From: Pontiellaceae bacterium
GTDB lineage: Bacteria > Verrucomicrobiota > Kiritimatiellia > Kiritimatiellales > Pontiellaceae
Assembly: GCA_016937945.1 (NCBI GenBank)
Contig: JAFGVP010000102.1
Coordinates: forward strand, 20,227-84,226
Direction: 5' to 3'
Length of the DNA: 64,000 nt
Each line of letters opens with the position of its first letter. The stretch's first letter is position 1. Below the pieces are notes generated by a model. The model did not search any database and was not told where the DNA came from. It worked only from the letters and a program-made list of their open reading frames with translations. The position numbers and the translations under genes were made by a program. Below, piece by piece: positions 7,006 through 41,300 of this stretch.

Positions 7006-7083
7006 TGGTCGGAGCGACAAGATTCGAACTTGCGACCTCTACCACCCCAAGGTAGCGCTCTAGCCAGGCTGAGCTACGCCCCG
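7006..7083 (-). tRNA. tRNA-Pro (anticodon GGG)
   Basis: Reverse complement gives CGGGGCG...CTACC-TTGGGGT-GGTAG...GGTCGCAAGTTCGAATCTTGTCGCTCCGACCA. The 7-bp acceptor stem has one G-U pair, the T-arm is GTTCGAATC, and a CCA is encoded. Anticodon loop TTGGGGT gives GGG. Confidence 0.85.
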
Positions 7084-7203
7084 AATTCCGTTTTGTATCG
7101 GAATTGAAGGCGAGGAACGTATCACGAGGGACAGGATGCGTCAACGCCGTCGGCATTAAAAATCGCGCCCCTTTTTCTTTTAAATACGCATCGACACTCT
7201 ACA

Positions 7204-22712: not shown

Positions 22713-24527
22713 GTGAAACCGACAGACACGAGTAATCCGGAGTATTTTCACAAGGTTGTAGACTGCCAATATGCCTGTCCGGCGCACACTCCGGTTCCGG
22801 AATACATTCGCCTCATTGCCGCCGGACGCTACGCCGACGCTTATATGATCAACTGGGAGTCCAATGTATTTCCCGGCATTCTCGGCCGAACCTGCGACCG
22901 CCCCTGCGAACCCGCCTGCCGCCGCGGACGCGTGGAAGACAAGCCGGTCGCCATCTGCCGGCTCAAGCGGGTATGTGCCGACATGAAGGACGATATCCGC
23001 TCCCGTCTGCCGAAAATTCCGAAAGAAAAAAACGGACTCCGAATTGCCCTGATCGGCGCCGGCCCCTCCGCCCTGACCGTTGCACGCGACCTGATGCCGC
23101 TGGGCTATACAATTGATCTGTTTGAAGCCGCGCCCAAGGCCGGCGGCTTCATGCGCCAGCAGATTCCATCCTTCCGGCTCCCGGAAGAGGTGATCGACGA
23201 AGAAACCGGCTACATTCTCGACATGGGCGTGAATGCTCATTTCAACACCCGGATTGAAAGCATGAAGGCGCTGATTGAGGATGGATATGACGCCGTTTTC
23301 GTGGGAACTGGTGCTCCGACGGGCCGGAACCTGAAACTTCCGGGATATGAAGAGCAGACCCAGAATTCGGTATTTATCGGTGTTGAATGGCTGGCACAGG
23401 TTGCTTTCGGACATCTTACCGAAGCCCCGCGCGATGTGATTGTGATCGGCGGCGGCAATACCGCCATGGACTGCTGCCGCACTGCGCTGCGCCTCGGCGC
23501 CGAAAACGTGAAGGTGCTCATTCGCACCCCGATCGATGCCATGGTGGCTTCGCCTTGGGAAATCGAAGATACTCGGGCCGAAGGCATTCCTATTCTGGAA
23601 AATCACAGTCCGTTGGAATACATCGTCGAGAACGGCCAGCTGAAGGGAATGAGTTTTGAAATCATCGAATATTCGATGACCGAAGACGGCAAAGAGGTTT
23701 TCACGCCGACCGGACAGCTTGAAACCATTCCATGCAGCATGGTCCTGCTGGCGATCGGACAGGCAAACGCGTTCCCATGGATCGAGCGGGATCTGGGAAT
23801 CGAATTCAACGACAACGGACTGGCGAAGGTGGACGACATTACCTTCCAGTCAACCCTTCCGAAGGTCTTTTTCGGGGGCGACGCCGCATTCGGGCCTCGC
23901 AATATTATTACAGCCGTTGCACAGGGTCATGCCGCGGCGCTTTCGATCGATCTGTTCCTGAAGGGAAAGGATCTCGAAGAACGGCCGGCGCCGGGAACCA
24001 ATCTGGTCAGCCAGAAAATGGGCATTCACGACTGGAGCTACGCAAGCATGGTTACCGAGGAGCATCGCCATGCGGTTCCTCATGTCGATCTCGACAAGGC
24101 GATTCACAGTCACAAGGTCGAGGTGGAGCTTGGTTTCGATGCCAAAACCGCATTCGAGGAAGCGCAACGCTGCCTGAACTGCGACGTTGAAACCGTCTTT
24201 TCGGCCAATAAGTGCATCGAATGCGACGCCTGTATCGACATCTGCCCGGTGGACTGCCTTACCTTTACCGATAACGAAGAGGAGGCCGCACTGCGCAAAA
24301 AGCTGAATGTGCCGGCCCATAACCTTTCGCAACCGCTGTTTGTATCCACCGAAGTAGGCACCGGACGCATCATGGTAAAGGACGAGGATGTCTGCCTCCA
24401 TTGCGGACTCTGTGCGGAACGCTGCCCGACCTCCGCATGGGACATGCAGAAATTCCTCTACATTCAGACCAAGGCCTTTAACGCCGAATCAAACCAAGCC
24501 AACCCCACACAAGCTGAGATCCAATGA
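22713..24527 (+). CDS. NAD(P)H-dependent FAD oxidoreductase, GltD-like, with C-terminal 2x[4Fe-4S] ferredoxin domain (OFOR-associated)
   Basis: N-terminal Cys cluster, 'IALIGAGPSAL' and 'VIVIGGGNTAMDC' dinucleotide-binding motifs, C-terminal 'CIECDACIDICP' / 'CLHCGLCAERCP'. GTG start with a GGGAGAG Shine-Dalgarno. Stop overlaps the korA start. Confidence 0.8.
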   Translation: MKPTDTSNPEYFHKVVDCQYACPAHTPVPEYIRLIAAGRYADAYMINWESNVFPGILGRTCDRPCEPACRRGRVEDKPVAICRLKRVCADMKDDIRSRLPKIPKEKNGLRIALIGAGPSALTVARDLMPLGYTIDLFEAAPKAGGFMRQQIPSFRLPEEVIDEETGYILDMGVNAHFNTRIESMKALIEDGYDAVFVGTGAPTGRNLKLPGYEEQTQNSVFIGVEWLAQVAFGHLTEAPRDVIVIGGGNTAMDCCRTALRLGAENVKVLIRTPIDAMVASPWEIEDTRAEGIPILENHSPLEYIVENGQLKGMSFEIIEYSMTEDGKEVFTPTGQLETIPCSMVLLAIGQANAFPWIERDLGIEFNDNGLAKVDDITFQSTLPKVFFGGDAAFGPRNIITAVAQGHAAALSIDLFLKGKDLEERPAPGTNLVSQKMGIHDWSYASMVTEEHRHAVPHVDLDKAIHSHKVEVELGFDAKTAFEEAQRCLNCDVETVFSANKCIECDACIDICPVDCLTFTDNEEEAALRKKLNVPAHNLSQPLFVSTEVGTGRIMVKDEDVCLHCGLCAERCPTSAWDMQKFLYIQTKAFNAESNQANPTQAEIQ

Positions 24528-26365
24528 AACGTGACATCATTACCAACGAGTTTGTAGTCAAGTTTGCCAATGTAAACGGAACCGGCTCGGCCAGCGCCAA
24601 CAAACTCTTCAGCCGCTCCGTATTCCGCATGGGGGTTCCCATCAGCCCCAAAAACATTTTCCCCTCCAATATCCAGGGATTACCGACATGGTATGAAGTG
24701 CGCATCAACGAAAAGGGATTCCTTGCCCGACGCGGCGGAATCGACGTAATGATCGGCATGAATCCGCAGAGCATGCAGCGCGACATTGCCGAGGTCGAAA
24801 AAGGCGGCTATTTCATCTATGATTCCACCAAGCCGCTTGATCCGGGCTGGCTGAGGGACGATATTGATTTCATCGGACTGCCGCTCACCGAAAAGTGCCG
24901 CGAAATGTACGAAGATCCCCGGCAGCGCCAGCTTTTCCGCAACATCATGTATGTCGGCGCCCTCGTTGCTCTGTTTGGAATGGAGATTGATGTGGTCAAG
25001 CAATTGATCAGCGACCAGTTCAAAGGCAAGGAACAGCTGGTGGCACCGAATGTGAAGGCCCTTGAAACCGGATTCGGACTGGCACAGGATTCCTACCCCT
25101 GCCCCTTTGCCTTCCGAATCGCCCGGCGCAATAATGTCGGCAACCGCATTCTCATGGATGGCAACGAAGCCTGCGGGCTCGGAGCCGTTTATGGCGGCGG
25201 CTCCGTATGCGCCTGGTATCCGATCACTCCATCAACCTCGGTCATCGACAACTTTTCGCGCTACTGCCGCAAATTCCGCATTGATTCCGAAACCGGCGCA
25301 AAAAACTTTGCCGTGGTTCAGGCCGAAGACGAACTCGCCGCGATCGGCATGGTCATCGGCGCTTCATGGAACGGCGCCCGCGCCTTTACAGCCACCAGCG
25401 GCCCCGGCCTATCGCTGATGCAGGAATTTCTCGGACTTGCCTACTTTGCGGAAATCCCGACTGTACTGATTGATGTCCAGCGCGCCGGACCCTCCACAGG
25501 TATGCCGACCCGAACGCAGCAGTCGGACATCATAACCGCGGCTTATGCCTCGCACGGAGATACCAAGCACATCTGCCTCTATCCATCTACGCCCAGAGAG
25601 TGCTTTGAATTCACGGCGACCGCGTTTGACCTGGCGGAGCGCTTCCAGACGCCCGTTCTGGTCATGTCCGATCTCGACCTCGGCATGAACGACAACATGT
25701 CCGACCCCTTTGAATGGGACGATGCGCGCACTTATGACCGGGGCAAAGTATTCAACCGAGACGATCTGGAAAACATGCAGGAGCGTTTCGGGCGTTATCT
25801 GGATATCGACGGTGACGGCGTTCCGTACCGAACCTATCCGGGCACCCATCCGACCAAGGGATCCTTCTTCACGCGCGGCACCTCGAAGGATGAATATGCG
25901 ATCTATACGGAGGCCGGCGAAAAATATATCGGCAACATGGAACGCCTGCTCCGCAAGTGGGATACCGCCAGCGAATATGTTCCCAAACCGACTCATTGCA
26001 CCACCGATAAACCCTGCACGGTCGGCGTGATCTATTACGGCACTTCGGAAGCCGCCACTCGCGAAGCGCTGTACCACCTCAACAACCTGCACGGGATATC
26101 GCTCGACTGCCTCGGAATCAAGGCGTTTCCGTTCACCCGCGAGGTGCAGGATTTCATCGACAGCCACGAATATGTTTTTGTCGTGGAGCAGAATCGCGAT
26201 GCCCAGATGCGCTCTCTGCTGATCAATGAATTCGACTACAACCCCGACCAGCTGGTTCCGCTGCTCCACTTCGACGGCAGCCCCATTACCGCCCGCTTTA
26301 TCCGCCATGAAATCCGCGACTGGATCCTGCAGACGACCACCACCCCGCGCCGGCGCCGCAAATAA
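24524..26365 (+). CDS. korA: 2-oxoacid:ferredoxin oxidoreductase subunit alpha (fused gamma/alpha, KorA-like)
   Basis: 613 aa with POR/OFOR gamma-like N-terminus and alpha domain ('GAVYGGGSVCAWYPITPST'). Operon with the TPP-binding beta subunit. Confidence 0.8.
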   Translation: MKRDIITNEFVVKFANVNGTGSASANKLFSRSVFRMGVPISPKNIFPSNIQGLPTWYEVRINEKGFLARRGGIDVMIGMNPQSMQRDIAEVEKGGYFIYDSTKPLDPGWLRDDIDFIGLPLTEKCREMYEDPRQRQLFRNIMYVGALVALFGMEIDVVKQLISDQFKGKEQLVAPNVKALETGFGLAQDSYPCPFAFRIARRNNVGNRILMDGNEACGLGAVYGGGSVCAWYPITPSTSVIDNFSRYCRKFRIDSETGAKNFAVVQAEDELAAIGMVIGASWNGARAFTATSGPGLSLMQEFLGLAYFAEIPTVLIDVQRAGPSTGMPTRTQQSDIITAAYASHGDTKHICLYPSTPRECFEFTATAFDLAERFQTPVLVMSDLDLGMNDNMSDPFEWDDARTYDRGKVFNRDDLENMQERFGRYLDIDGDGVPYRTYPGTHPTKGSFFTRGTSKDEYAIYTEAGEKYIGNMERLLRKWDTASEYVPKPTHCTTDKPCTVGVIYYGTSEAATREALYHLNNLHGISLDCLGIKAFPFTREVQDFIDSHEYVFVVEQNRDAQMRSLLINEFDYNPDQLVPLLHFDGSPITARFIRHEIRDWILQTTTTPRRRRK

Positions 26366-26376
26366 CGGAGATCCCC

Positions 26377-27429
26377 ATGAGCTACAAAATTCCCGGCTTC
26401 CGCCACCCCAACCTTCCGAAAAACGAGCTCGGCTATACGACCAAGGATTATGAAGGGGCCGTATCCACCCTCTGCGCCGGATGCGGGCACGATTCCATCA
26501 GTGCCGCGATCATCGAGGCCTGCTTCGAAATGTCGATCCAGCCGCATCGTGTGGCCAAACTTTCCGGCATCGGCTGCTCCTCAAAAACGCCGACCTACTT
26601 TCTGGGAAACTCCCACGGATTCAATTCGGTACACGGGCGCATGCCGTCGGTCGCAACCGGCGCAAACATGGCCAACCGAAACATGCTCTATGTCGGTATT
26701 TCCGGCGATGGCGACACCGCATCGATCGGCATGGGACAGTTTGTTCACGCAGTCCGGCGCAATGTCAACATGGTCTATATCTGCGAAAACAACGGCGTTT
26801 ACGGCCTGACCAAAGGACAGGATTCGGCCACGACGGATATTGGATCGAAAAGCAAGAAGGGCGAGCCCAACGCCCTTGAACCGATCAACCTGTGCGCGAT
26901 TGCCCTGCAGCTCGGCGCCACCTTCGTGGCAAACAGTTTCTCGGGCGACAAAAGTCAGCTCGTACCGATCATCAAAGCGGCCATCGCCCATCAGGGTTTC
27001 TCGTTTATCAACGTGATATCCCCCTGCGTAACCTTCAACAACGTTGTGAGTTCCACAAAGTCATACGACTATATCCGGCAGCATATGGCATCCACCAACT
27101 CCGTGGATTATGTGCCGCCGGCCTCGGAAATCACCACCGAGTATGAGCCCGGCACGACAGAACGGGTGACCATGCATGACGGCTCCGTCATTAGCCTGCA
27201 TAAACTTGATCCCAATCTGGACATCCACAGCCGCCGCTCGGCGCTGGAAATGATCTATGAATACAGTGCGCAGGATAAAGTACTGACCGGCGTGCTGTTT
27301 ATTGATCCCGACGCCGACGAAATCCACAAGACGATGAACACGACAACCACACCGCTGAGAAACCTGACTGAAAAGGAACTTTGCCCCGGAGCGGCGGCAC
27401 TGGAAACCATCAATGAGCTGCACCGCTGA
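26377..27429 (+). CDS. korB: 2-oxoacid:ferredoxin oxidoreductase subunit beta (TPP-binding, KorB-like)
   Basis: 'GCGHDSI', 'GIGCSS', 'GDGDTASIG' TPP-binding motifs. Confidence 0.85.
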   Translation: MSYKIPGFRHPNLPKNELGYTTKDYEGAVSTLCAGCGHDSISAAIIEACFEMSIQPHRVAKLSGIGCSSKTPTYFLGNSHGFNSVHGRMPSVATGANMANRNMLYVGISGDGDTASIGMGQFVHAVRRNVNMVYICENNGVYGLTKGQDSATTDIGSKSKKGEPNALEPINLCAIALQLGATFVANSFSGDKSQLVPIIKAAIAHQGFSFINVISPCVTFNNVVSSTKSYDYIRQHMASTNSVDYVPPASEITTEYEPGTTERVTMHDGSVISLHKLDPNLDIHSRRSALEMIYEYSAQDKVLTGVLFIDPDADEIHKTMNTTTTPLRNLTEKELCPGAAALETINELHR

Positions 27430-27436
27430 CGCGGAT

Positions 27437-27739
27437 TCAGGCAGCCGACACAAACTTGTCGCCCAGCCGGCAGTGATGCCCGAACCGGCAGATGGTCTGG
27501 CAATATTGTTCGCGCCATTGACGCGCCAGACCGAAGTAGCCGTGTTCCATGAAATCGCGTTCGGCTTCCCGCCAGGAAACTTCCGATCCGCGACGCTCGG
27601 ACATATACCATTTGTTTTCATCGACGGCCTTGCAGTATTGCGTAATCTGCCACTCCTGAAGCGATCTGAATCCACTGCAGGTGATGCCCCGGTCGCTTTG
27701 ACAGTCCATTCTTCCTTCGTTGTAGTTTTCGTCTCTCAT
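27437..27739 (-). CDS. hypothetical small Cys/His-rich protein
   Basis: 100-aa ORF with ATG start and a GGAG-like Shine-Dalgarno. Several Cys/His ('CSGF', 'CQTICRFGHHC'). Convergent with korB. Confidence 0.35.
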   Translation of the reverse strand: MRDENYNEGRMDCQSDRGITCSGFRSLQEWQITQYCKAVDENKWYMSERRGSEVSWREAERDFMEHGYFGLARQWREQYCQTICRFGHHCRLGDKFVSAA

Positions 27740-28231
27740 GACTCCGTGACTCCATCAAATATTCTCTGACATATTCTATAGCATAGCCCATGCCGTTCCG
27801 GATGGGAACCGAACGAACTCGCAGCGAAACCATCCCGAATAACCTGAGTCACGGGGGGAACGGAAACACATTCCCATTCACCCTCCCGCCCATGTCGGTT
27901 CAGTTTATCCGGATCAAGGCGGAATAACCGGAAAACAGATTCCATTTTCCCGCACGGGAAAACCCATTTTTTGATGCCTGCACGACATGTTTCGCACGGA
28001 AACACAGAATCGACGAAGGTCTTACAAAAGCCCCATGAGGTTATAATTGAGATAATGGGACCAACACATATCATGTCTTCAAATCAAACACTTGAACTTG
28101 GTTTCAATTATTTGATTAGAAGTGGACAAATATATTGCGTGCATATATATGTGTATAAAATTTTCGGTCAGGGTTTGGTACCCACCGAGTGTCATCCCGG
28201 AACGAACCGGGAGCAAACGAAAGGAAAAGCT

Positions 28232-28912
28232 ATGAACCTGTTCAAACGCATGATGCGTATCACGAATGCCCGTATCGAAGCGGTTCTCTCCTCTGTTGAG
28301 GATCCTGAAACCATGTTTCCCCAGCTCGTTCGCGAAATGGAGGAACAGGTCGGCAAAGCCACCGAAGCAGAAGCTCAGGCCCTGACGGCGCTCAAGGTTG
28401 CAGAACGGAATCTGGAAGGCGCCAAAAACAACGTTGCAAAAATGCAGTCCGGCGCCGAACTTGCTGTAAAGAATAACGACGAAGCCATGGCCCGCGAAGC
28501 CATTGCTGCACAGCTTGACCACGAAAAGACACTCCAGCTGAAAGCGGATGCCTGCGACAAGGCCCGCGAAAGCTATGAACGCGCTCGCGATACCCGCCTT
28601 CAGGTCCAGGAAAAGCTGGACGAAATCCGCTCCAAGCAGGACGAGATCCTCACACGGGCCCGGATTGCAAAGAGCCAGAAGAAGATTGAGCAGACCGTCA
28701 GCTCCCCCCTGAACTCATCCGACAGCATTCTTGATGCGATCGACCGGCTTGAAGGCAAGGTTGAACAGGCGGAAGCAGAACTGGAAGTCCGGCGCGAAGT
28801 GGCCGGATCCGGCAAGCCGGCCCGCGACCTTGAAAAACGGCTCGAAAAGCTCGAAAGCGAGCAGGAAGTCGAACAGCGTCTGGCCGCCTTGAAAAATAAG
28901 CTGGCAGACTAG
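28232..28912 (+). CDS. pspA: PspA/IM30/Vipp1-family protein (ESCRT-III-like), paralog 1
   Basis: 'MNLFKRMMRITNARIEAVLSSVEDPETMFPQLVREMEEQV' closely parallels the PspA N-terminus. Coiled-coil throughout. Strong AAGGAAAAG Shine-Dalgarno. Confidence 0.85.
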   Translation: MNLFKRMMRITNARIEAVLSSVEDPETMFPQLVREMEEQVGKATEAEAQALTALKVAERNLEGAKNNVAKMQSGAELAVKNNDEAMAREAIAAQLDHEKTLQLKADACDKARESYERARDTRLQVQEKLDEIRSKQDEILTRARIAKSQKKIEQTVSSPLNSSDSILDAIDRLEGKVEQAEAELEVRREVAGSGKPARDLEKRLEKLESEQEVEQRLAALKNKLAD

Positions 28913-29004
28913 CTCCACCATGGCTCCGCAGAGCACGGAATCCGGCTTTTTTAAGTCTCCGTGCCCGCGTGTGCCCGCTTACTGAATCGAACAGGGAGCG
29001 AGTC

Positions 29005-29658
29005 ATGAATATCAGAGATCGTCTCAAAAACGTCTTCAAGGAAACCTTCCTTGATCTGTTTCACGATGAAGAACCAACACCAGACAATATGGACTCGGCA
29101 CTGGAACAGGCCCGCAGCAGTGCGGAAAAAGCCATGGACGCCCTTGCGGCGTTTACTGTATCGCATCTTCATCTTGCGGAGCAGCAGCATGCGGTCGAAG
29201 AACAGTTCAGCGCCTTGAACGCAGAGCTCGAAAGCGCCCTTGCAGAAAATGACGACAGCAGAGCCCGCAACCTGATCCGGAAGAAAAAACCGATTCAGAA
29301 CCAGTTGAATCAGCTCAATGAGCGCATGGCCGAAAGCAATGCGAGACATCAGGAGCTGAAGGCCCGGGTTGACGCCGTAAAGGGTCAGGTGCTGGATATC
29401 GAGCGGCGGAAAATGGAGCTTCAGCTTCGCGACCGGACCGCCGATGCAATGGATGAACTGGCACGGACAGAGGATGCAATCGGACAGGCCCATAACTATT
29501 CGGAGAGCATCGATGCCGAACAGACGGTCCTGCAGAAGGAAGCGGCTAATCAGGTAACAGCGGATCAGCGTAACACGATCGATGCGAAACTGAATCGGCT
29601 GATTGAAGACGACGAGGTTGAGCAGGAACTGGCCCGTCTCAAAAAAGAACGAAACTGA
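29005..29658 (+). CDS. PspA/IM30-like coiled-coil protein, paralog 2 (divergent)
   Basis: 'MNIRDRLKNVFKETFLDLFHDEEP...' PspA-like helix-0/helix-1, then coiled-coil. Directly follows paralog 1. Confidence 0.7.
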   Translation: MNIRDRLKNVFKETFLDLFHDEEPTPDNMDSALEQARSSAEKAMDALAAFTVSHLHLAEQQHAVEEQFSALNAELESALAENDDSRARNLIRKKKPIQNQLNQLNERMAESNARHQELKARVDAVKGQVLDIERRKMELQLRDRTADAMDELARTEDAIGQAHNYSESIDAEQTVLQKEAANQVTADQRNTIDAKLNRLIEDDEVEQELARLKKERN

Positions 29659-30296
29659 TGGGACTGCTTTCCAGACTTAAGGATATCAGCACCGGAAAAC
29701 TCCTCGCATTCCTTGATGAGGCGGAGCGACCGGAGCAGATTATTCCCCAGCTGCTCGACGAGCTGAGCGACCAACAGCAGGCTTTGCGTAATGCCGAGGC
29801 CAAATCGTTGTCGGCGGTCAGGAACGCACAGCGCCGGCTGGAGGAAACCATGGGGCGGTCGCTTCGCCTTGAGCGGGGAGCCGAGCTGGCCATCCGCAAA
29901 GGCGAGGATGACACCGCCCGGGAAGCGCTCAGGGAACAGCTCAAGATCGAGAACATTATTCCCCGGCAGCGCGAGCAGGTGGAGCAGGCACAGCAGATTC
30001 TGGACGATGTCCGGGAAAGAAGCCGGGCGATGGATGAGCAGATTGCCGCCGTTAAAGAAAAACGGAACACACTAAAATCGGCGCCGGACACTCCTCCCCA
30101 TTCGTCCGAACCGCTGTTGCGAAAAGTGGCGATGATGGAGGAGCGGATCATCGAAGAGGAAGCCGGACTGGAAGCACGGCGGGAAGTATACCAGCGCCGG
30201 CGCTCGCTCGATGAACGCCTGCTTGAGCTGGAACGCAACGAAGAAATAGAGAATCGCCTTAATAATATCCGAAAGGAACAAAACCATGATGGCTGA
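29658..30296 (+). CDS. PspA/IM30-like protein, paralog 3
   Basis: 'MGLLSRLKDISTGKLLAFLDEAERPEQIIPQLLDEL' PspA-type N-terminus. Start overlaps the stop of paralog 2 (TGATG). Confidence 0.75.
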   Translation: MGLLSRLKDISTGKLLAFLDEAERPEQIIPQLLDELSDQQQALRNAEAKSLSAVRNAQRRLEETMGRSLRLERGAELAIRKGEDDTAREALREQLKIENIIPRQREQVEQAQQILDDVRERSRAMDEQIAAVKEKRNTLKSAPDTPPHSSEPLLRKVAMMEERIIEEEAGLEARREVYQRRRSLDERLLELERNEEIENRLNNIRKEQNHDG

Positions 30297-30945
30297 ACTG
30301 CAGGAACTGATCCGGATCATGCTCGCAGGAATCAACCTGCCGATCACGCTTCTGTTTGCTGTTATGATCCTCTACTGGCTCAGCGTTATCTTCGGTGCGC
30401 TGGATATCGATATTCTTCAGTTTGACTTTGATGTCGATATTGAAGGCGGAGCTGACCTTGATGCTGACGCGGATGCAGATGTTCAGGGAGGCGGACCATT
30501 CCAAAGCATGCTGCTCTATTTCAATGTCGGTTCGGTGCCGGTCACGGTCTGGCTGAGTTTCCTGATTTTCACCTGCTGGTTGCTCTCCGTTCTTGAAACC
30601 TACTATTTTAATCCGGGGCTCCATTTCCTCATCGGCCTGATCTTTGTCATCCCGAACCTGATCGTAGGAATGTATGTGGCGAAGATGGCTACCGCACCGC
30701 TCAAGAAAGTGTTTGACGCCATGGCCCCGAAAAATATCACGCGCAAATCGCTCATTGGCCAGCGTGCCACGGTTTCTTCATCGACCGTCAGCAGCAGCTT
30801 CGGACAGATTGTCGTCAAAACCGATGGCGCACCGATCACTCTGAACGCCCGAAGTGCCCACGAAATCAGCAAAGGCGAAATGGTCGTAATCACACACGAA
30901 AAAGAACCGGGCGTCTTCACGGTCGAACCGTTTTCAGCAAACTAA
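30286..30945 (+). CDS. NfeD/YqiJ-like membrane protein (flotillin-associated, C-terminal OB-fold)
   Basis: 219 aa. Multiple TM helices, acidic loop 'DIEGGADLDADADADVQGGG', C-terminal beta-rich segment 'GQRATVSS...GQIVVKTDGAPITLNA...GEMVVIT' typical of the NfeD OB-fold. Precedes flotillin as in yqiJK/nfeD-floT pairs. Confidence 0.7.
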   Translation: MMAELQELIRIMLAGINLPITLLFAVMILYWLSVIFGALDIDILQFDFDVDIEGGADLDADADADVQGGGPFQSMLLYFNVGSVPVTVWLSFLIFTCWLLSVLETYYFNPGLHFLIGLIFVIPNLIVGMYVAKMATAPLKKVFDAMAPKNITRKSLIGQRATVSSSTVSSSFGQIVVKTDGAPITLNARSAHEISKGEMVVITHEKEPGVFTVEPFSAN

Positions 30946-30979: not shown

Positions 30980-33022
30980 ATGGGGGAACTACTAGGACTC
31001 ATCGTAATAGGCGTAGCTGCACTGCTCGTGCTCGGGCTGATCGGCGTCATTGTCAAATGCTACCGCAAGGTGGAACAGGGTACTGCGATTATCCGTACCG
31101 GGGTGGGCGGAACACGCGTTTCCTTTGAAGGCATTCTGGTCTTCCCGATTCTTCACCGCATGGAGCTGATGGAAATCTCCGTTAAGCGCATTGAGATTGA
31201 TCGTGCCGGATCGGACGGACTGATCTGTAAAGACAACCTGCGGGCCGACCTGAAGGTTGCCTTCTTCGTCCGGGTAAACAAAACGCCCGAAGATGTATTG
31301 AACGTGGCACAGTGCCTCGGATGCAAACGCGCCTCCGATCCGGTTGCCCTGGTGGACTTCTTTGACGCCAAGTTTTCCGAAGCCCTGAAGACCGTCGGTA
31401 AAAAGTTTGAGTTCGTCGAACTCTACTCAAATCGTGATACCTTCAAGGAAGAGATCATCAAGGTGATCGGAACCGATCTAAACGGATACGTGCTCGACGA
31501 CGCCGCCATCGACTATCTGGAACAGACCAAGCTCTCGCTCCTGAACCCCGACAACATTCTCGATGCCGAGGGGATCAAGAAGATTACCGAACTCACCGCC
31601 AAGCAGGCGATCCTCGCCAACGACATTGCGCGCGACAAGGAAAAGATCATCAAGAAGCAGGATGTGGAAGCACGTGAAGCCATTCTGCAGCTGGAAAAAC
31701 AGCAGGAAGAAGCCGAACAGAAACAGAAGCGCGAGATTGCTGAAATCACCGCTCGCGAAGAGGCCGAAGCCGCCAAAGTCAGGGAAGAAGAACGCAAGAA
31801 AGCCGAAAAAGCGAGGATCCAGACCGAAGAGGAAATTGCCGTCGCCAACGAAAACAAAGATCGTCAGGTTATCGTGGCCGCCAAGAACAAGGAGCGGACC
31901 GATCTGGTGGAAAGCGAGCGCATCATCAAGGATCGCGATCTTGAAGCCACCGAACGCGAACGGATTGTCACCCTCGCCCAGATCGAGAAGGAAAAGGCCG
32001 TCGAAGTCGAACGGAAGAATATTCAGGAAGTCATCCGCGAGCGGGTCATGGTTGAACGTAATGTGGTCGAGGAAGAAGAGCACATCAAGGATACCCGCGA
32101 ATTTGCCGGTGCCGACCGCGCCAAGCAGGTGGCCCTGACCAAGGCGGCGGAACAGGCCGAACAGAACCTGCTCATCGAAACCAAGGCCGCGGAAGCCCGC
32201 AAGGAAGCCATGCGCCACGAAGCCGAGCAGATGATCATCAAGGCCGACGCCGAACGCACGGCATCCGAAAAGGCGGCCGACGCCCGTAAGATCATGGCCG
32301 ACGCCCAGGCCGAAGAAGAAGCCGTCATCGGTATCGGTGAAGCCCGCGCGCTCGACGCCAAGGCCACGGCCACCGAGAAGTTCGGCATCGCCGAAGCCAA
32401 CGTGATCCAGAAGAAGGCGGAAGCCGAAGCCACCGCCATACAGAAACAGGGTGAAGCCGAAGCGATCGTGATTGGAAGCAAAGCCAGCGCCGAAGCCAAG
32501 GGCATTGACGAAAAGGCTGCCGCCATGAAGAAGTTCGATGCCGTCGGCAAGGAACACGAAGAGTTCAAGCTTAAGCTCAACAAGGATCTGGAAATCGAAC
32601 TCGCACATATCAACGTCCAGAAGGATATCGCCCGCGAACAGGCAGCGGTTATTGCCGAGGCTCTCAAGTCGGCCCGCATCGATATTGTCGGGGGCGACAG
32701 CACCTTCTTCGACAAGATTGTGGATTCCGTTACCAAAGGAAAATCCTTCGACCGCATGATCGATAACAGCACCGCGCTGACCGACATCAAGGAAACACTC
32801 TTCACCGGCGACTCCACAAACTTCACTGAACAGCTGAAGCGCTTTACTTCGCAGTTCGGCATGGATTCCGAAGACCTCAAGAACCTCACGGTTGCTGCGG
32901 CACTAGGGCAGATGATGTCCAGAGCGGACGAAGGAACCAAGGGATTCCTTCAGAGCATCATGGACACGGCAAAGAAGACCGGCATTGCCGATCAGGCCGC
33001 ATCCACCTTCCTGAACAAGTAA
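30980..33022 (+). CDS. flotillin-family SPFH-domain protein (YqiK/FloT-like)
   Basis: 680 aa. N-terminal TM, SPFH/band-7 domain, then a long E/A/K-rich coiled-coil with flotillin-type repeats ('AEAEATAIQKQGEAEAIVIG'). Confidence 0.85.
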   Translation: MGELLGLIVIGVAALLVLGLIGVIVKCYRKVEQGTAIIRTGVGGTRVSFEGILVFPILHRMELMEISVKRIEIDRAGSDGLICKDNLRADLKVAFFVRVNKTPEDVLNVAQCLGCKRASDPVALVDFFDAKFSEALKTVGKKFEFVELYSNRDTFKEEIIKVIGTDLNGYVLDDAAIDYLEQTKLSLLNPDNILDAEGIKKITELTAKQAILANDIARDKEKIIKKQDVEAREAILQLEKQQEEAEQKQKREIAEITAREEAEAAKVREEERKKAEKARIQTEEEIAVANENKDRQVIVAAKNKERTDLVESERIIKDRDLEATERERIVTLAQIEKEKAVEVERKNIQEVIRERVMVERNVVEEEEHIKDTREFAGADRAKQVALTKAAEQAEQNLLIETKAAEARKEAMRHEAEQMIIKADAERTASEKAADARKIMADAQAEEEAVIGIGEARALDAKATATEKFGIAEANVIQKKAEAEATAIQKQGEAEAIVIGSKASAEAKGIDEKAAAMKKFDAVGKEHEEFKLKLNKDLEIELAHINVQKDIAREQAAVIAEALKSARIDIVGGDSTFFDKIVDSVTKGKSFDRMIDNSTALTDIKETLFTGDSTNFTEQLKRFTSQFGMDSEDLKNLTVAAALGQMMSRADEGTKGFLQSIMDTAKKTGIADQAASTFLNK

Positions 33023-33115
33023 CCGCAAGAGAACCACGGAACACACAGAATACAATAAGGAGCTTAGATCTCCGTGTATTCGGTGTATTCCGTGGCGAAC
33101 AAAAAGGGTCTTTCC

Positions 33116-36100
33116 ATGGCAGAAGAAACCGCAGGCAAGGAACAGGAATCCCAACTCGAAAGCGGCGCCTACGAGGTTATCCGCGGCCGGCTGAATACGC
33201 ATTCGCAGGATCTCTTTTCGCGCACGGAGCAGCTGGATAAACATCGGCGAGAGGTCTTCGGATCGATTGAAACCGCGCTGCTCGCCACCGAGCGGATCAC
33301 CACTGAAAACAACTGCGTCCCGCGCGACATGGTTGAAGTCGGCAATCAGTTCCTTTTCGGCTACAACGTTCATATCGGACTGCGCTCCGAGATGCAGCTT
33401 GGTGACGTCTTCTCGGCCTATACCTTCAACGAAGACGGCGGCTTTCGCTCAGCTCCGCTGGACCTGCTCGGCAGCAGCGAATTCGAGACGCACTTCCGGG
33501 AGCTTTACAAATACTACAAAAACACCCGGTTCAGCGCATTCCGCGACGTCGGAACCTGCCTGTACATGATCTTCCGGATCAGCGATGACCCGGCCGACAT
33601 CAAGGCATTCAAATGGCAGCGCAACGACGATGGGTCCATCACCTACATCGACAATCGATCGGATCATGAAGTCAGGTTCCCGCCCCAGCACGAATTTGAA
33701 TGGACCCGCGCATCGCGCGACATGCAGCGCAACGGCGAGCACCCGCACGTATCCATTCAGGACCGCATCTTTGTCGAGACCATCGGCGGCGACCTGACCA
33801 TCAAGATCGAAGACAACACCGACACCGGAGAAGGTATCTTTGCCGAACCGGTTGATAATCCGGACCAGACGCTCGACGACGCCGAAATCTGGTACACCTG
33901 CATTGAAAGCCTGATCCTGCTGAAGATCCTTCCCTATCAGGAAAAAAACTATCGCTATATCGTATACTCCGAAAAACTGAACATCGCGCAGCGCATCGAT
34001 ACCATTGCCGACTCCTGTGTCCTGCTGCCCCGCAACCGCGGAATCATTTTCGCCAACGGATATTTCCTGCAGAACGGCGAAGTCAAAACCTTTGAGAACA
34101 GCCTCACCGATATGCGCTTCCTCCGCCGCATCGCGGCAACCAACGGCGAGGACCATCTCTACATCTTTTTCAACCGGCGCAACGGCGTATACGTCCTTCT
34201 CGCCTACAACGTCATTCAGGAAACGGTAGCCACGCCGATCACCTGCCACGGCTACAGCCTGTTTGAAAACGGCCGGCTCATCTTTTTCAAAGCCGGGAAT
34301 GAACCGCAGAAAAGTCACGCCATTCAGGTCTGGCAAACGCCGTTCACCGGGGCCGACGTGGTGCTCAGCAAGAATACCGATGACTATCTGTACAAGATCG
34401 GCAACTCCGACATCGTACGCTGCATGGCGGCCTGCAACGCGATCATCAACCTGTCACGGCGCGAAGACACCTACGCCAACCTCTATGTCGATCTGGTGCG
34501 GGAAGCACAGGATGTCATCGATACCTATTTCTGGATTGAAAAGCAGGAAGCGTATGACCTGCGTGCCCCGCTGCTTCAGATACGCGATGCGGCCAAGGCT
34601 GCTATCGACGAGTTTGAAAAAGTACGCCGGCTGCGCCAGCAGGCGTCCACGGCTCTGAAGGAAATGCGCCGGCGCGTGAAGGATGCGACCTCGGCGTCGG
34701 CCTCCAGCCGCTACGAAAAACTCGATCCATATGTAAAAGCCCTTGCCAACCTGCGCGCACTGCGCGGAGAAATTATCAGCCTGCGCGAACTGCGCTACAT
34801 GGATCTAGAGCAGGTTGAAGTCATGGAGACTTCGGTTGCGGAGCAGACGGATAAAACCGCCCGCACCTGCGTTGAATTCCTGCTCAAGCCGGAATCGCTG
34901 ACCCCCTACTCCGACGAAGTTGCAAAGGTGGCGGAATCGATCGAAACGGTTGAAAAGGTGGCCGACGCCAAAAAGATCGAGGGCGCCGTGACCGAACGCG
35001 CCGGCGAACTGGAGATGCTGACCGACACCGTAAGCAACCTGAAGATTGATGACGCCACGCAGCGGACCGACATCATCGACCGCATCTCGCAGATCTTTTC
35101 CTCCCTCAACCGGGTTCGTTCCACGCTTCGGAACCGGCTCAAGGAACTGGCCGTCCGCGAAGGATCCACCGAATTTGCATCGCAGCTCAAGCTGCTTTCT
35201 CAGGCGGTCACCAACTATCTGGATGTATGCGACTCGCCGGAAAAGTGCGATGACTATCTCGGCAAGGTCATGATTCAGATCGAGGAACTGGAAGGGCGCT
35301 TCTCCGACTTTGATGAGTTTATCGAGCAGTTGACGGAACGACGGGAAGCCATCTACCAGACCTTCGAAACGCGCAAGCAGCAGCTCATGGAAGAGCGTAA
35401 CCGGCGCGCCGATACCCTGCTGCGCAGTGCCGAACGGATTCTCAAGAGTATTGCCCCTCGCCTCAACTCAATGCAGACCGTCGAGGAAATCAACGGTTAC
35501 TTTGCGTCGGACCTCATGGTCGATAAGGTTCGAAACATCATTGAGCAGCTCACCGAAATGGATGACTCCGTCAAGGCGGGCGACATTCAGACCCGGCTGA
35601 AAACATTGAGGGAAGATGCGGTTCGTCAGTTGAAGGACCAGCAGGAGCTCTTCGTCGGCGGCGAAAATGTGATCCGCTTCGGCACGCACCATTTTGCCGT
35701 CAACACGCAGCCGCTTGAGCTCACGCTGGTCCGGCGAGAAGAGAACATGTTCATGCATCTCACCGGCACCGACTTTTTCGAAGCGGTCACCGACGAGGCG
35801 TTCCTTGAAACGCGCGCGGTCTGGGAATATGAACTGCCGTCCGAAACAAAGGATCTTTACCGCGCCGAATTTCTGGCGGTTCAGCTGTTTCGCAAAGCAC
35901 TTGCTGAAGGGCTGGCTGAATATGCGGAAGACGAACTGCTGAAATATGTTCAGGAGCATATGGCCACCCGCTACACCGAAGGCTACATCAAGGGCGTCAG
36001 CGACATCGATGCCGCCAAGCTGCTCCATGCCCTGCTCTCCATCCATCAGCGCGCCGGACTCCTGCAGTACAGTCCATCCATCCGGGCGCTGGCGATCCTC

Positions 36101-38200
36101 GGCTGGGCTCTGCATCCGGATAAGGACGAACTGTCCGATAAACTTGCGGGCTACGGCCGCGTCCGGAATGTATTCCGCAATACCGGTCGTCACGCAGCCT
36201 ATACCCGCGAACTGCAGCGGATTCTGCAGGACTTTTCCGAAAGCAATGAGCTTTTCCCTGAACACGATGCCGTTTTTGCGGCGGAATATCTTTCGGATGT
36301 GCTGACCCATGATGGAAAACATCCGATCAGTCGGGAAGCCATAGCGCTCTTCAACGGGTTTCAGCAGCGGCTGAAACGGCCGGGAGCCCAGCGCCTTTTT
36401 GATGAAGCGATGGCGCCGGTTGAAAAGCGCCCGCTGGCCCGTTTTGATCTGCTCAGGGACTGGCTGGCGGCATACATTGAAGATGAAGCATTGCCGGAAC
36501 TGTGCGATGTGATTGCTGAAACCGCGGCTCTGATGCTGACGGACAAGATGGACCCGCTCAACTCCGGCGATCTGGACACCCGCTGTGAAATCAGCGAACT
36601 GGCCGGAAGTCATGCGCGCATCACCAACGGCAAATACCTCTTTGATTATCACGACCTGCTGCGCCGGGTTCATCTGCATGAAACCGGACTTCTCCCCCAC
36701 TTCGCGGTTTTCCTCGAAAAGAAAAAGGCGCTGGTTGAACGTACGCGCGATGAAATGCGACTCGATGAATTTAAACCGCGCGTGCTGACCTCGTTTGTCC
36801 GGAACCAGCTGATCGACAAGCTTTACCTGCCGCTGATCGGTGACAATCTCGCCAAGCAGATGGGCACCGTCGGGGCAGACACACGCACCGACCGCATGGG
36901 CATGCTGCTGCTGATTTCTCCGCCGGGTTACGGGAAGACGACGCTGATGGAATATATCGCCAACCGCCTCGGGATTATCTTCATGAAGATCAACGGCCCG
37001 GCGATCGGCCATCAGGTTACTTCCATCGATCCGGCCGAAGCTCCGAATGCCGCGGCGCGGCAGGAGCTGAACAAGCTCAATCTGGCACTGGAGATGGGCG
37101 ACAACGTGATGATCTATCTCGACGACATCCAGCACTGTAATCCGGAACTGCTGCAGAAATTTATTTCGCTCTGCGATGCCCAGCGAAAGATTGAAGGCGT
37201 CTACAAGGGCCGGCCGAAAACCTATGACCTGCGAGGCAAGGCTGTCTGCGTGGTGATGGCGGGCAACCCCTACACGGAAAGCGGTGAAATGTTCAAGGTG
37301 CCGGACATGCTGGCCAACCGGGCAGACACCTATAACCTGGGTGATATGATCGGCGATTCTGCCGACGCCTTCAAACTCTCCTATATCGAGAACGCCATGA
37401 CCTCCAATCCCGTTCTGGATAAGCTGGCATCGCGTTCCCGTTCGGATATTCATGCGATGATCAGGCTCGCGGAAAATGATTCCCGCGAAGGGATCGAGTT
37501 TGAGCGCGACTATTCAGCCGACGAGATTGCCGAATTCACTTCCGTACTTCGAAAGCTGCTCCGCATCCGCGATGTCGTGCTGACCGTGAATCAGGAATAT
37601 ATTCGCTCCGCCGCGCAATCCGACGACTACCGCACGGAGCCGCCGTTTAAACTGCAGGGATCCTATCGGAATATGAACCGGTTGGCGGAAAAGGTGCAGC
37701 CGATCATGAATGATGCGGAGATCGAGGCAATCCTGATGGATCATTATACCGGCGAAGCCCAGACATTGACCACCGGTGCCGAGTCCAACCTGCTCAAATT
37801 CAAGGAACTGTTCAGCAAACAAGATGAAACCGAAGCCGCCCGCTGGACGGAGATTAAGAAAACCTTCAACCGCAACCAGCTGTTCAGTGCCGCCGGTGAC
37901 GATAAACTGGCCCCGATTATTCTTCAGCTCTCCCGCTTCAATGAACATCTTGAAGAACTGAAAAGCACCATTGCTCAGGCTGCAGAATCCCGACCAGGGC
38001 AATCGTCTGCCGAGATCAATCTGGGATTATCGACTATTGAGGCGCTTAAACCGGCATCGACCGACTTCGGTCCGCTCCAGCAGACACTGCTGGAAATTGC
38101 GGAAAAACTGCAGGAAAGCGGAATGCATCCACACAGGAGAAGTGAACTTCCGGTGCATATGCAGAAACCCTGGCCGAAGGATTCGGACGACAGCAAATAG
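33116..38200 (+). CDS. very large (~1694 aa) protein with C-terminal AAA_5 (dynein/MoxR/McrB-type) ATPase module; N-terminal ~1250 aa of unknown function with coiled-coils
   Basis: Walker A 'LLLISPPGYGKTTLMEYIA'. Walker B/sensor region 'VMIYLDDIQHCNPELLQKF...AVCVVMAGNPY' matches the AAA_5 'DEINRA' pattern. ATG at 33116 with an AAAAAGGG Shine-Dalgarno. Confidence 0.8.
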   Translation: MAEETAGKEQESQLESGAYEVIRGRLNTHSQDLFSRTEQLDKHRREVFGSIETALLATERITTENNCVPRDMVEVGNQFLFGYNVHIGLRSEMQLGDVFSAYTFNEDGGFRSAPLDLLGSSEFETHFRELYKYYKNTRFSAFRDVGTCLYMIFRISDDPADIKAFKWQRNDDGSITYIDNRSDHEVRFPPQHEFEWTRASRDMQRNGEHPHVSIQDRIFVETIGGDLTIKIEDNTDTGEGIFAEPVDNPDQTLDDAEIWYTCIESLILLKILPYQEKNYRYIVYSEKLNIAQRIDTIADSCVLLPRNRGIIFANGYFLQNGEVKTFENSLTDMRFLRRIAATNGEDHLYIFFNRRNGVYVLLAYNVIQETVATPITCHGYSLFENGRLIFFKAGNEPQKSHAIQVWQTPFTGADVVLSKNTDDYLYKIGNSDIVRCMAACNAIINLSRREDTYANLYVDLVREAQDVIDTYFWIEKQEAYDLRAPLLQIRDAAKAAIDEFEKVRRLRQQASTALKEMRRRVKDATSASASSRYEKLDPYVKALANLRALRGEIISLRELRYMDLEQVEVMETSVAEQTDKTARTCVEFLLKPESLTPYSDEVAKVAESIETVEKVADAKKIEGAVTERAGELEMLTDTVSNLKIDDATQRTDIIDRISQIFSSLNRVRSTLRNRLKELAVREGSTEFASQLKLLSQAVTNYLDVCDSPEKCDDYLGKVMIQIEELEGRFSDFDEFIEQLTERREAIYQTFETRKQQLMEERNRRADTLLRSAERILKSIAPRLNSMQTVEEINGYFASDLMVDKVRNIIEQLTEMDDSVKAGDIQTRLKTLREDAVRQLKDQQELFVGGENVIRFGTHHFAVNTQPLELTLVRREENMFMHLTGTDFFEAVTDEAFLETRAVWEYELPSETKDLYRAEFLAVQLFRKALAEGLAEYAEDELLKYVQEHMATRYTEGYIKGVSDIDAAKLLHALLSIHQRAGLLQYSPSIRALAILGWALHPDKDELSDKLAGYGRVRNVFRNTGRHAAYTRELQRILQDFSESNELFPEHDAVFAAEYLSDVLTHDGKHPISREAIALFNGFQQRLKRPGAQRLFDEAMAPVEKRPLARFDLLRDWLAAYIEDEALPELCDVIAETAALMLTDKMDPLNSGDLDTRCEISELAGSHARITNGKYLFDYHDLLRRVHLHETGLLPHFAVFLEKKKALVERTRDEMRLDEFKPRVLTSFVRNQLIDKLYLPLIGDNLAKQMGTVGADTRTDRMGMLLLISPPGYGKTTLMEYIANRLGIIFMKINGPAIGHQVTSIDPAEAPNAAARQELNKLNLALEMGDNVMIYLDDIQHCNPELLQKFISLCDAQRKIEGVYKGRPKTYDLRGKAVCVVMAGNPYTESGEMFKVPDMLANRADTYNLGDMIGDSADAFKLSYIENAMTSNPVLDKLASRSRSDIHAMIRLAENDSREGIEFERDYSADEIAEFTSVLRKLLRIRDVVLTVNQEYIRSAAQSDDYRTEPPFKLQGSYRNMNRLAEKVQPIMNDAEIEAILMDHYTGEAQTLTTGAESNLLKFKELFSKQDETEAARWTEIKKTFNRNQLFSAAGDDKLAPIILQLSRFNEHLEELKSTIAQAAESRPGQSSAEINLGLSTIEALKPASTDFGPLQQTLLEIAEKLQESGMHPHRRSELPVHMQKPWPKDSDDSK

Positions 38201-38352
38201 CCCCGGAAGCGCCAACCGATGCAGATGCGTGAACCATGGTTTGGTGCACGGGTTCGGCGCCGGACCACTTCATGAACAACTGCTGGTGAAAAGAGTTTGC
38301 GGCGGACGTGGTTGAACCGATACGTTTTTGCAAAATAATCTTGGAGTTATCT

Positions 38353-41300
38353 ATGAATCGTTTTCTATCTGCCGGACTCATCCTCCTGACACTGCTTCTT
38401 CCTGTCCTGCCGTCGCAGGCTGCTGATTTTCTATCAGCGGAGGTGATTGCGAAAAAGGCAACTGCGGCCTCTGTTGATAAATATCCCGATTCCGATGCGG
38501 TCCTGCTTGATGACTACATTCAGGTGACCTACAACGCCGACGGAACCTCCGAAATGTGGGACGACACCGCCGTTAAGATCCTGACAGAAAAGGGCAAACG
38601 CAATTATCGCACGCTATCGCTCTCCTTCAACACTTCATACGGCACCAACTACTTTACACTGGTGGAAATCATTAAACCCGACGGATCGGTGATTCCCGTG
38701 GATATTACAGCCAACAGCAAGGTGATGGCGGATCCCAGCCAGATGAGCGCGAATATATACAACCCCAACAGCAAGGTGCTCAGTCTGTCGGTCCCCGGCC
38801 TGGAAGTGGGCGACACCCTGCACTACATCTCCTACGATCTCACAACAAAAACCGTCGTTCCGGATACATGGAGCGACTATCAGGTCTTTGAAGGAGAAAC
38901 TCCGATCGAGCAGATGACCTATCAGGTGGTTGCCCCGAGCGCGCGTCCGCTGCAGAAGATCGCGCTCAAGGGAGAGATTCCCGGCAAAGTTTCCTTCAAC
39001 CAGACCGTCAGCGAAGAAGACGGATATATTATCTACACGTGGCAGGTGCGGGATGTCCCGCGTATGTTCGACGAACCCGACATGCCGAAACGCTACACCG
39101 TTGTGCAGCGCCTGCTGGTCAGCACCATCGAATCATGGGAAGATCTCTCACGCTGGTACTGGGAACTGTGCAAACCGCGGCTTGATGCCACGACGCCGGA
39201 AATGGAAGCTAAAGCCCGCGAACTGGTAGCGGGATGCGAAACGAAGGCCGAAAAAATTCAAGCGGTTTTCCAGTTTGTTTCGCAGGATATCCGCTACATG
39301 GGTATCACCCCGGAAGAAGAGGCGCCCGGTTATGAGCCGCACGATGTATGCATCACCTTCGAAAACCGTTACGGGGTCTGCCGCGACAAAGCAGCCCTGC
39401 TGGCGGCCATGCTCCGGATTGTCGACATCGAGGCGTTCCCGGTCATCATCATGGCCGGCCCCAAGAAGGATGAAGAAGTTCCACAGCCCTTCTTCAACCA
39501 TGCGGTAACCGCCGCTCTTGGTGATGACGGTGAATACATCCTGATGGATTCCACCGACGAAAACACGAAGGACATTTTTCCGGCCTACCTCCAGAACATG
39601 AGCTATCTGGTTGCCCGCCCCGAAGGAGAGACCCTGCTCACCTCTCCGGTTATTCCGGCAGAAAACAATCTCCTGCGGATTCAATCCACCGGCACACTGA
39701 ATGCCACCGGCACATTGAACATGGAGAGCGTACTGAACTTTGAAGGCGTGAACGATACGGTTTATCGCGGCTACTTTTCAAAGATCAAGCCAGAGGAACG
39801 CCGGCGCTTCTTTGAGGGCCATCTGAAACGGACGATGCCCACCGCGATATTGAACTCGCTTGAAATCCTGCCCGAAGAGCTGCGCGACACCAGTAGCCCA
39901 CTGGTCGTAAAGATGACCTTTTCCGCAGACAACCTCCTGATTGAAGGCGAAGAAAACACCATGTTCCGACCACCGCGTCTCGGAATGTCGCTTGGCTACG
40001 CAAACTTTCTCATCGGACAGACCGGCCTCGAAGAGCGTAAATATCCGCTCTACACCCAGATCACCGCCGGTATTCGTGAAACCCAGAAGCTGAAGCTTCC
40101 CGACGATCTGGGCACCATCAATGTGCCGGATTTCATGCTGATCGACACCGAAACCATTACATGGAATGCCCATGCTTCTCAGCACGACGGCGCACTCTAC
40201 TCCACCAACATCTTCATGCTCAATACCGTGGAGTTCAGCCCGGAACAGTACAGCACCCTCAAGCAGCAATTGAAGGATATTGAATACAATCTGCGCAAGA
40301 GCATTGTGGCCGATGCCCCGCCGCAGTCGGAAGACGAAGCGGATATTCGGATTCTCGACCAAGAGACCGAGATTGTGCTTTCCGGCGTCGACCGATGGAC
40401 GGAAACCCGCCGGACCAAACTGAAGGTACTGACCTATGCCGGCCAGAAGGAATATTCCGAAATCAAGCTGTTCCATAATCCGGCGTGGCAGGAAATCGGA
40501 ATAACCCACGCAACCGTGACGCTCGCCGACGGAACCGTCAAAGAGATCAGCGACGATGAAATCAACCTGATGGACGCATCCTGGGTGGCCGGTGCGCCCC
40601 GCTATCCCTCCGGACGGATTCTGGTGGGCAACCTGCCCGGCGTGGAAATCGGAAGTACCATCGAGTATGAAGTGGTCTCCCGCGTTAATGGTAAACCCTT
40701 CTTTTCCATGATCGAAACCTTTACCGGCCATGAACCGGTGGATCACAGTAGGCTGACAATCACCGTTCCAGAGAACCTTCCGCTGCAGATTCTCAACACC
40801 GGTGTGGATGAAACCATCGAAAGCAGCGAAGATTCCATTACCTACACATGGAGTGTCTCGAATAAGCCAGCCGTCAAGTTTGAGGAATCCCTGCCGGACT
40901 GGTGGACGTTCAATCCATCGGTATTCGTTTCATGCGGCGACTGGGAAATCTACAGCAAGCAGCTTCTCGAACGTCTTCGGCAGGCCTCCCGCGAACAACC
41001 GGAAGCCATCCGCATGGCACGGAAAATAACAGGAGGAATCGGAAGCCATCGCGAGCGGGTGATTGCCATCCGCAACTGGGTAGCCGAAAACATTCGCCCG
41101 GCCGGTCCTTCCCTGCCCGACCTGCCCTTCGACGCCATTTCGCCGGCCGACCGCACGCTGGCCGACCGCTACGGCAACAACACAGATCGCATGGTCGTAC
41201 TCTACACCCTACTTAAGGCTGCCGGCTTCAAACCGGAATTCATTCTGTCCGGCGGCACGCCGCACATTGCGGAGGCTGCAAAACCGATGCTCGAAGTGCC

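Follow-up and report, generated by a model that had tools for sequence, protein, structure and literature searches.

Three consecutive genes (A, B and C) of the PspA/IM30 family, which includes the membrane-repair protein PspA, lie in a 64,000-nucleotide stretch of DNA, hereafter the window, from a marine Kiritimatiellota bacterium of the Pontiellaceae, the Kiritimatiellota being part of the Planctomycetes–Verrucomicrobia–Chlamydiae (PVC) group. We propose that they stand at the head of a six-gene operon, continued by genes for a YqiJ/NfeD-like membrane protein (D), a YqiK-type flotillin (E) and a DUF3686 β-propeller AAA+ ATPase (F), and we place this reading, taken jointly with the mechanism set out below, at a probability of roughly 60%. 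The initial annotation of this DNA had called three adjacent PspA-type open reading frames (ORFs), and these are present as described (Table 1). Its region ended at position 30296 and thereby missed the decisive downstream context, D, E and F.

A, B and C are genuine, anciently diverged paralogs of the PspA/IM30 family, within the bacterial ESCRT-III superfamily. Pfam family PF04012 (PspA_IM30; gathering cutoff 33.9 bits) matches A with 103.1, B with 47.8 and C with 71.5 bits, covering positions 1–217 of the 220-position profile in A and 4–218 in B; the possibility raised at the outset, that the second or third gene might encode a generic coiled-coil protein, thus falls away. Matches to PDB sequences (phmmer) are confined to PspA/Vipp1 entries and run collinear from residue 1. 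Residues 1–224 of A match Nostoc Vipp1/PspA structures (Vipp1 1–217, E = 1e-21), residues 1–133 of C match E. coli PspA (4WHE, E = 3e-11), and residues 2–214 of B lie on Vipp1 2–215 (E = 0.004), the best 11 matches of B all being Vipp1/PspA and collinear. Comparison of orthogroup alignments by hhalign ties A to C (99.8%) and both of these to PspA/Vipp1 (99.5% and 99.2%, respectively); B aligns with PspA/Vipp1 at 96.1% (1–219 against 1–220), with C at 95.7% and with A at 73.5%. For A and C, PspA/Vipp1 is a closer match than the YjfJ type; B reaches 3% against the YjfJ type. No match of A, B or C to Snf7 (PF03357) was found at E ≤ 0.1 in the Pfam search. The equivalog TIGR02977, which spans residues 1–208 of C, scores A at 95.6, B at 18.3 and C at 77.9 bits, far short of its cutoff of 242.95, and none of the three reaches an NCBIfam equivalog cutoff for PspA or LiaH; they belong to the family but are not orthologous to the proteins of E. 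coli or Bacillus. The C-terminal helices (encoded at 28850–28909, 29600–29655 and 30235–30293) bear a [DE]xx[VI]ExxLxxL[KR] motif, EQEVEQRLAALK in A, DDEVEQELARLK in B and NEEIENRLNNIR in C, which resembles the eukaryotic ESCRT-III MIT-interacting motif 1 (MIM1) consensus, (D/E)xxLxxRLxxL(K/R). The motif is also present in E. coli PspA and Vipp1 and is thus no peculiarity of this locus.

B belongs to a rare, new PspA subfamily, and its sequence matches at 100% identity a protein recorded for a Pontiellaceae metagenome-assembled genome. As the paralog with the weakest family match, it was modelled with AlphaFold2 (AF2) from an alignment of 10 orthologs, giving helices 3–18, 26–80 and 84–216 at a predicted local distance difference test (pLDDT) score of 86.2. 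The hairpin of the model superposes on E. coli PspA(1–144) (4WHE) with a root-mean-square deviation of 2.0 Å over 116 columns, and the first 17 Foldseek matches in the PDB are all Vipp1/PspA. The family's C-terminal EVEQELARLK-type motif is retained. B is the fastest-evolving of the three, and its ortholog at one distant locus (L094) has no Pfam match. The N terminus, VFKETFLDLF, is unusual, non-basic and invariant among close orthologs, and helix 1 is acidic (net charge −8). When 1.84 billion cluster representatives were searched exhaustively with a profile, only 6 B-type clusters (at 50% identity) came back, scoring 174–340 bits; beneath these the score falls from 174 to ≤57 bits, where generic PspAs begin. 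A scan of Joint Genome Institute (JGI) metagenomes for a wider spread of B gave 4 generic PspAs only, distant at 24–25% identity. C-type proteins fall into 24 clusters when grouped at 90% identity.

Look-ups of B and C orthologs brought in eight further loci long enough for gene order to be read. The order A-B-C-D-E-F holds in eight of the nine, namely the window, Pontiella desulfatans (L001), L003, L088, L089, L090, L094 and L095; the ninth, L096, reads A-C-D-E-F. Flanking genes differ at every related locus, which marks the cassette itself as the conserved unit, and its recurrence in related genomes with other flanks argues that the array is no product of chance. A distance-based neighbour-joining tree of six triad loci (100 bootstraps) resolves A, B and C as three monophyletic orthogroups, each with 100% bootstrap support; the PspA genes of L094, L095 and L096 were assigned by orthogroup hidden Markov models (HMMs). 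Separation of the orthogroups at this level places the triplication before the split of these genomes. Pairwise identity is 31% for A–C (BLASTP E = 1e-22), 22% for A–B and 21% for B–C, and on both counts the first description of the array as mutually divergent, old paralogs holds. All three genes are under purifying selection, with ratios of nonsynonymous to synonymous substitution (dN/dS) of 0.05–0.17 (about 0.09–0.14 for A) at a saturated dS.

The spacing of the genes is tight. One base is common to the stop codon of B and the start codon of C (TGATG, 29656–29660), confirming the translational coupling that the initial annotation had read from this overlap, and C overlaps D by 11 nt (ATGATGGCTGA), an overlap of C stop and D start that is seen in six of the nine loci. 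Between A and B lie 92 nt. The six genes are predicted to be carried on a single transcript.

Downstream, D was identified by profile comparison. Its Pfam matches to YqiJ_N and NfeD are sub-threshold and a BLASTP comparison with YqiJ is not significant; a profile built from 20 D orthologs aligns with E. coli YqiJ over 170 columns (hhalign 96.2%, E = 2.5e-9). E shares 31% identity with E. coli YqiK over 444 residues (BLASTP E = 8e-49), and searches of Pfam, NCBIfam and PDB sequences gave no match for it. The Pfam matches of F are to DUF3686 (610.9 bits), DUF7902 (99.3 bits) and AAA (28.9 bits), and an AF2 model of its residues 1–509 (pLDDT 86.8) has a long helix followed by a β-propeller. The Walker A region bears a weak likeness to p97/Cdc48-type classical AAA proteins. 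Neither MIT nor Vps4_C domains were found in F by Pfam search; given this and the β-propeller N terminus, F is not a Vps4 ortholog. The same search found no sigma-54 activator or helix-turn-helix (HTH) domain. The start of F is ambiguous: GTG 33074 has AAGGAG upstream, and the homolog consensus (M, 10 residues, then QLE) fits ATG 33116, which is possibly the true start. A literature search with the term 'DUF3686' returned no paper.

D, E and F are found well outside the Kiritimatiellota. Their order is invariant in 80 genome loci from several phyla, D always lying directly before the flotillin gene, and the DUF3686 N-domain is 50–60% identical across Planctomycetota, Verrucomicrobiota, Bacteroidota, Desulfobacterota, Acidobacteriota and Omnitrophota. 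In about 20 loci of the Bacteroidota a single PspA gene immediately precedes D; at one of them (L048) a CesT_Tir_1 gene (190.7 bits) comes before it. In the Phycisphaerae, one PspA gene precedes D in L007 (492–10199) and another follows F, and both at this locus and in L019 (6790–7479) the PspA before D is divergent and that after the AAA+ gene is A/C-like. This PspA-D-E-F-PspA arrangement may be the ancestral PVC form that gave rise to the triad. On the tree, A and C fall with those Phycisphaerae PspAs that are located after F (100% bootstrap), B stands alone, and the Bacteroidota operon PspAs join E. coli YjfJ (100% bootstrap). A, B and C do not join that grouping and are therefore not of the YjfJ clade; the separate groupings further indicate that the D-E-F core has recruited PspA-family genes more than once. 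Within an operon class already known, the triad is a lineage-specific variant distinct from the YjfJ/CesT-Tir form.

Table 1. Genes and non-coding features of the PspA triad cassette, in positions of the window.
Feature	Position	Strand	Description
Promoter-like block	28022..28047	+	TTACAA-N14-TATAAT; candidate
5' leader	28165..28231	+	67 nt; two hairpins, then ribosome-binding site GAAAGGAAAA; upstream of A only
pspA paralog A	28232-28912	+	226 aa; MNLFKRMMRI...VEDPE; most conserved of the three, closest to canonical PspA/Vipp1
A–B spacer hairpin	28922..28975	+	long hairpin with no T-tract after it; minimum free energy −34.9 kcal/mol, z −2.65
pspA paralog B	29005-29658	+	217 aa; MNIRDRLKNV...HDEEPTPD; divergent, rare PspA subfamily
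pspA paralog C	29658-30296	+	212 aa; MGLLSRLKDI...DEAERPE; coupled to B upstream and D downstream
D	30286-30945	+	YqiJ/NfeD-like polytopic membrane protein, 219 aa; hhalign to YqiJ
E	30980-33022	+	flotillin-family (SPFH/band-7 + coiled coil) membrane protein, 680 aa; YqiK homolog
F	33074-38200	+	giant AAA+ ATPase, ~1,700 aa; DUF3686 β-propeller + DUF7902 + coiled coil + one AAA

The DNA before A holds a promoter-like block and a leader. In the block, TTACAAA and TTATAAT are invariant across the window, P. desulfatans and L003, the upstream DNA having otherwise diverged. The spacer of 14 nt is short for sigma-70; most other loci have a TTGACA box closer to the leader, and a consensus promoter scan of the window gave TTGAGA-16-TATCAT (28047–28074) alone. 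The leader is almost invariant in all nine loci, unlike the DNA around it. RNAalifold folds it with 17 pairs, 4 of which have compensatory changes, into hairpins closed by CGGU.../...ACCG around GGGU/ACCC and by CCCGG/CCGGG. An Rfam search in E-value mode over 27400–30400 matched no family to the leader or to the spacer. We suggest that the leader may be a new cis-regulatory RNA of this operon. A wider regulon built on the leader motif was considered and rejected, the motif occurring once in the window and once in each related locus.

Hairpins differing in sequence from that of the A–B spacer occupy the equivalent position in P. desulfatans (z = −5.05), L003 (−3.87), L088 (−2.67) and L090 (−3.07); the fold is weak in L089. 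These hairpins are backed by single-sequence folds, the spacers being too diverged to align for covariation. We infer that the element acts as an mRNA stabiliser or processing element setting the ratio of A to B/C.

Neighbouring genes differ from locus to locus. Directly upstream in the window (22713–27429, plus strand) is a 2-oxoacid:ferredoxin oxidoreductase cluster with a POR/POR_N α–γ fusion and a thiamine pyrophosphate (TPP)-binding β subunit; before it comes a GltD-like pyridine-nucleotide-disulphide oxidoreductase that carries 4Fe-4S domains. The cluster is not retained beside the cassette elsewhere. A putative gene on the minus strand (27437–27739) encodes 100 residues whose weak match to DUF4032, at 17.8 bits, stays below the 23.8-bit cutoff. 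Following F, a plus-strand gene (38308–42123) encodes a protein of 1,271 residues in which DUF3857 and transglutaminase-core stretches each occur twice. This gene was considered as a member of the operon and rejected, because downstream neighbours vary among all related loci. P. desulfatans has an extra gene between D and the flotillin gene (L001, 12409–13632; 407 residues, no Pfam match) that the other loci lack. Genes for an extracytoplasmic function (ECF)-type sigma factor (Sigma70_r2) and a Ser/Thr kinase adjoin the cassette in P. desulfatans (3864–8844) and in L003 (6074–8883 and 19327–20657); they are absent from the window and the other loci and may be regulators particular to these lineages.

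In the mechanism that we propose, the NfeD-like D and the flotillin E would form a membrane platform, as suggested by the E. coli YqiJ/YqiK pairing and by the B. subtilis PspA-YdjGHI precedent, and this platform would recruit PspA polymers to a stressed or remodelling inner membrane. The three paralogs would be specialised parts of one machine. A would be the main polymer subunit, made in excess. C, made together with D, would tie the polymer to the NfeD–flotillin platform, by analogy with the SPFH-dependent recruitment of PspA in B. subtilis (PMC8581546). B would be a modulatory or capping subunit, dispensable in some lineages, a role suggested by its acidic helix 1, its unusual conserved N terminus and its loss in L096. 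The AAA+ ATPase F would spend ATP to remodel or recycle the PspA assembly. Judged from the genes, heteropolymeric co-assembly with remodelling by F is plausible; the stoichiometry, the physical interactions and the substrate of the ATPase are what we infer.

Several observations weigh against the operon and this division of labour. In most loci of the Planctomycetota and Verrucomicrobiota no PspA gene adjoins D-E-F, and a search there for a hidden PspA among 10 upstream ORFs (iterated HMM and Pfam) found none, so PspA is an accessory to the core and not an obligatory part of it. B is missing from one related metagenomic locus (L096, 686–2071), making it dispensable in at least one lineage. The A–B spacer with its hairpin is absent from L094 and L095, the two most distant triads, and the stoichiometry argument is therefore not general. 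The case for co-transcription of A with B–F is a spacer in which no promoter-like or terminator-like site is seen. B and C have no clearly amphipathic N-terminal helix: the α0 hydrophobic moment is 0.47 in A, 0.34 in B and 0.17 in C, compared with 0.42–0.57 in E. coli PspA and two Vipp1 references, and none of the three is convincingly above sequence shuffles.

The most ambitious form of the proposal is a composite bacterial ESCRT-III machine that arose independently of those in archaea and eukaryotes. In it, A, B and C would co-polymerise or assemble sequentially on the flotillin/NfeD platform, B would stand for a lineage-restricted, hitherto unrecognised PspA subfamily specialised for hetero-assembly, and F would disassemble or remodel the polymer as a functional, non-homologous analog of Vps4. 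We advance it tentatively, as a hypothesis with less than an even chance of being right. A, B and C might instead form separate homo-oligomers, subfunctionalised for different membranes, stresses or growth phases and kept in one operon for co-regulation, in the manner of cyanobacterial PspA/Vipp1 and Bacillus PspA/LiaH. The solved bacterial PspA/Vipp1 assemblies in the PDB are all homo-oligomers, paralogs at 21–31% identity are very divergent, and genomes with several PspAs generally lack a common context among the paralogs (PMC11237479). Here, however, a common context, a single leader and coupled translation unite the three, which fits production in a fixed ratio better than independent roles, and gene order is kept across eight loci; we consider separate homopolymers doubtful.

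A regulatory or adaptor function of B, possibly also of C, is unlikely in our estimation. Such a protein could gate the AAA+ protein F, following the precedent of E. coli PspA, which binds and inhibits the AAA+ protein PspF (PMC7619361), or could fill the chaperone-like role of CesT/Tir in the Bacteroidota operon, whose CesT/Tir gene precedes PspA and has no counterpart in the Kiritimatiellota operon. The N terminus and acidic helix of B and its loss in L096 would suit this role as well; against it, B retains the architecture of PspA over its full length together with the hairpin fold, and F, with no match to a sigma-54 activator or HTH domain, is not a bacterial enhancer-binding protein of the PspF/NtrC type. 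The idea that B, or all three proteins, are generic coiled coils misassigned through composition, so that no true paralog array exists, is largely refuted. It could draw on the modest Pfam and phmmer scores of B, the L094 ortholog with no Pfam match and weak PADLOC matches to JetC and LmuB. B nevertheless exceeds the curated Pfam cutoff over nearly the whole profile, aligns with PspA/Vipp1 in hhalign, finds PspA/Vipp1 as its top PDB matches in both sequence and structure, and shares the C-terminal motif. An anti-phage defence system was also considered and dismissed, the PADLOC output being sub-significant coiled-coil/AAA noise only.

Should the composite assembly and the action of the ATPase on it prove real, stepwise multi-subunit ESCRT-III mechanics would not be limited to archaea and eukaryotes. 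Without co-assembly of A, B and C, the locus would still be a clean natural case of PspA subfunctionalisation around a flotillin platform. P. desulfatans, which is presumably a cultured isolate and has a genome contig of 4.37 Mb on record, carries the cassette, and its genes are open to direct cloning and test. Composite polymers and ATP-driven turnover are open questions in bacteria, since a 2025 review holds that heteropolymers are possible only in the <10% of lineages with PspA duplications and that a Vps4-like ATPase appears to be absent (PMC7619361). The first of these statements agrees with the initial annotation, by which most bacteria have a single copy; Popp et al. (2022) report multiple paralogs in >10% of genomes having only PspA or only PspC (PMC9239133). 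The cassette described here unites both features, combining three co-encoded, partly coupled PspA paralogs with a flotillin scaffold and an AAA+ ATPase, and is in our view a good candidate for a bacterial machine of several ESCRT-III-like subunits.

Among known systems, the operon of Ravi et al. (2024, mSystems), CesT/Tir-PspA(YjfJ)-flotillin-YqiJ-novel AAA+ with coiled coil and β-propeller, also reported in abbreviated versions that lack PspA (PMC11237479), has genes for a YqiJ/YuaF-like 3TM protein, a flotillin and a DUF3686 AAA+ ATPase in the same order as the cassette and, likewise, PspA-family coding directly upstream. It differs in having one PspA gene where the cassette has three, and in its CesT/Tir gene: upstream of A, 27430–28231 contains no plus-strand ORF, and neither of the two minus-strand ORFs in that interval matches CesT/Tir. 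The CesT_Tir_1 gene of L048 served as positive control, and its locus is an instance of the Bacteroidota form of this operon. The supplement of that study has no Kiritimatiellota entry (PMC11237479). The cyanobacterial PspA/Vipp1 dyads and triads also place two or three adjacent PspA-family genes side by side by tandem duplication (PMC11237479). Those arrays stem from the Vipp1/PspA split and lack flotillin, YqiJ and AAA+ partners, and B represents a far more divergent subfamily.

The B. subtilis pspA-ydjGHI (samGHI) operon likewise encodes PspA together with membrane proteins and an SPFH/band-7 protein, the latter being required for the attachment of PspA to the membrane (PMC8581546; operon also in PMC9239133). 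In contrast to the cassette, it has a single PspA, a YdjI that is not a YqiK-type flotillin, other membrane partners and no AAA+ ATPase. With the proteobacterial PspFABC system the cassette shares a PspA-family effector, E. coli PspA aligning with A and C; pspF, pspB and pspC were not found among the neighbouring genes by Pfam search, and in this the classical Psp system differs. In the archaeal Cdv system (CdvB/B1/B2 with Vps4) and in Asgard and eukaryotic ESCRT-III with Vps4, the proteins are of the Snf7 clade, whereas A, B and C are of the PspA clade, so that the likeness is one of architecture only, known here from the genes. It consists in several paralogs encoded with an AAA+ ATPase, in systems whose working principle is the composite, stepwise polymer (PMC7619361).

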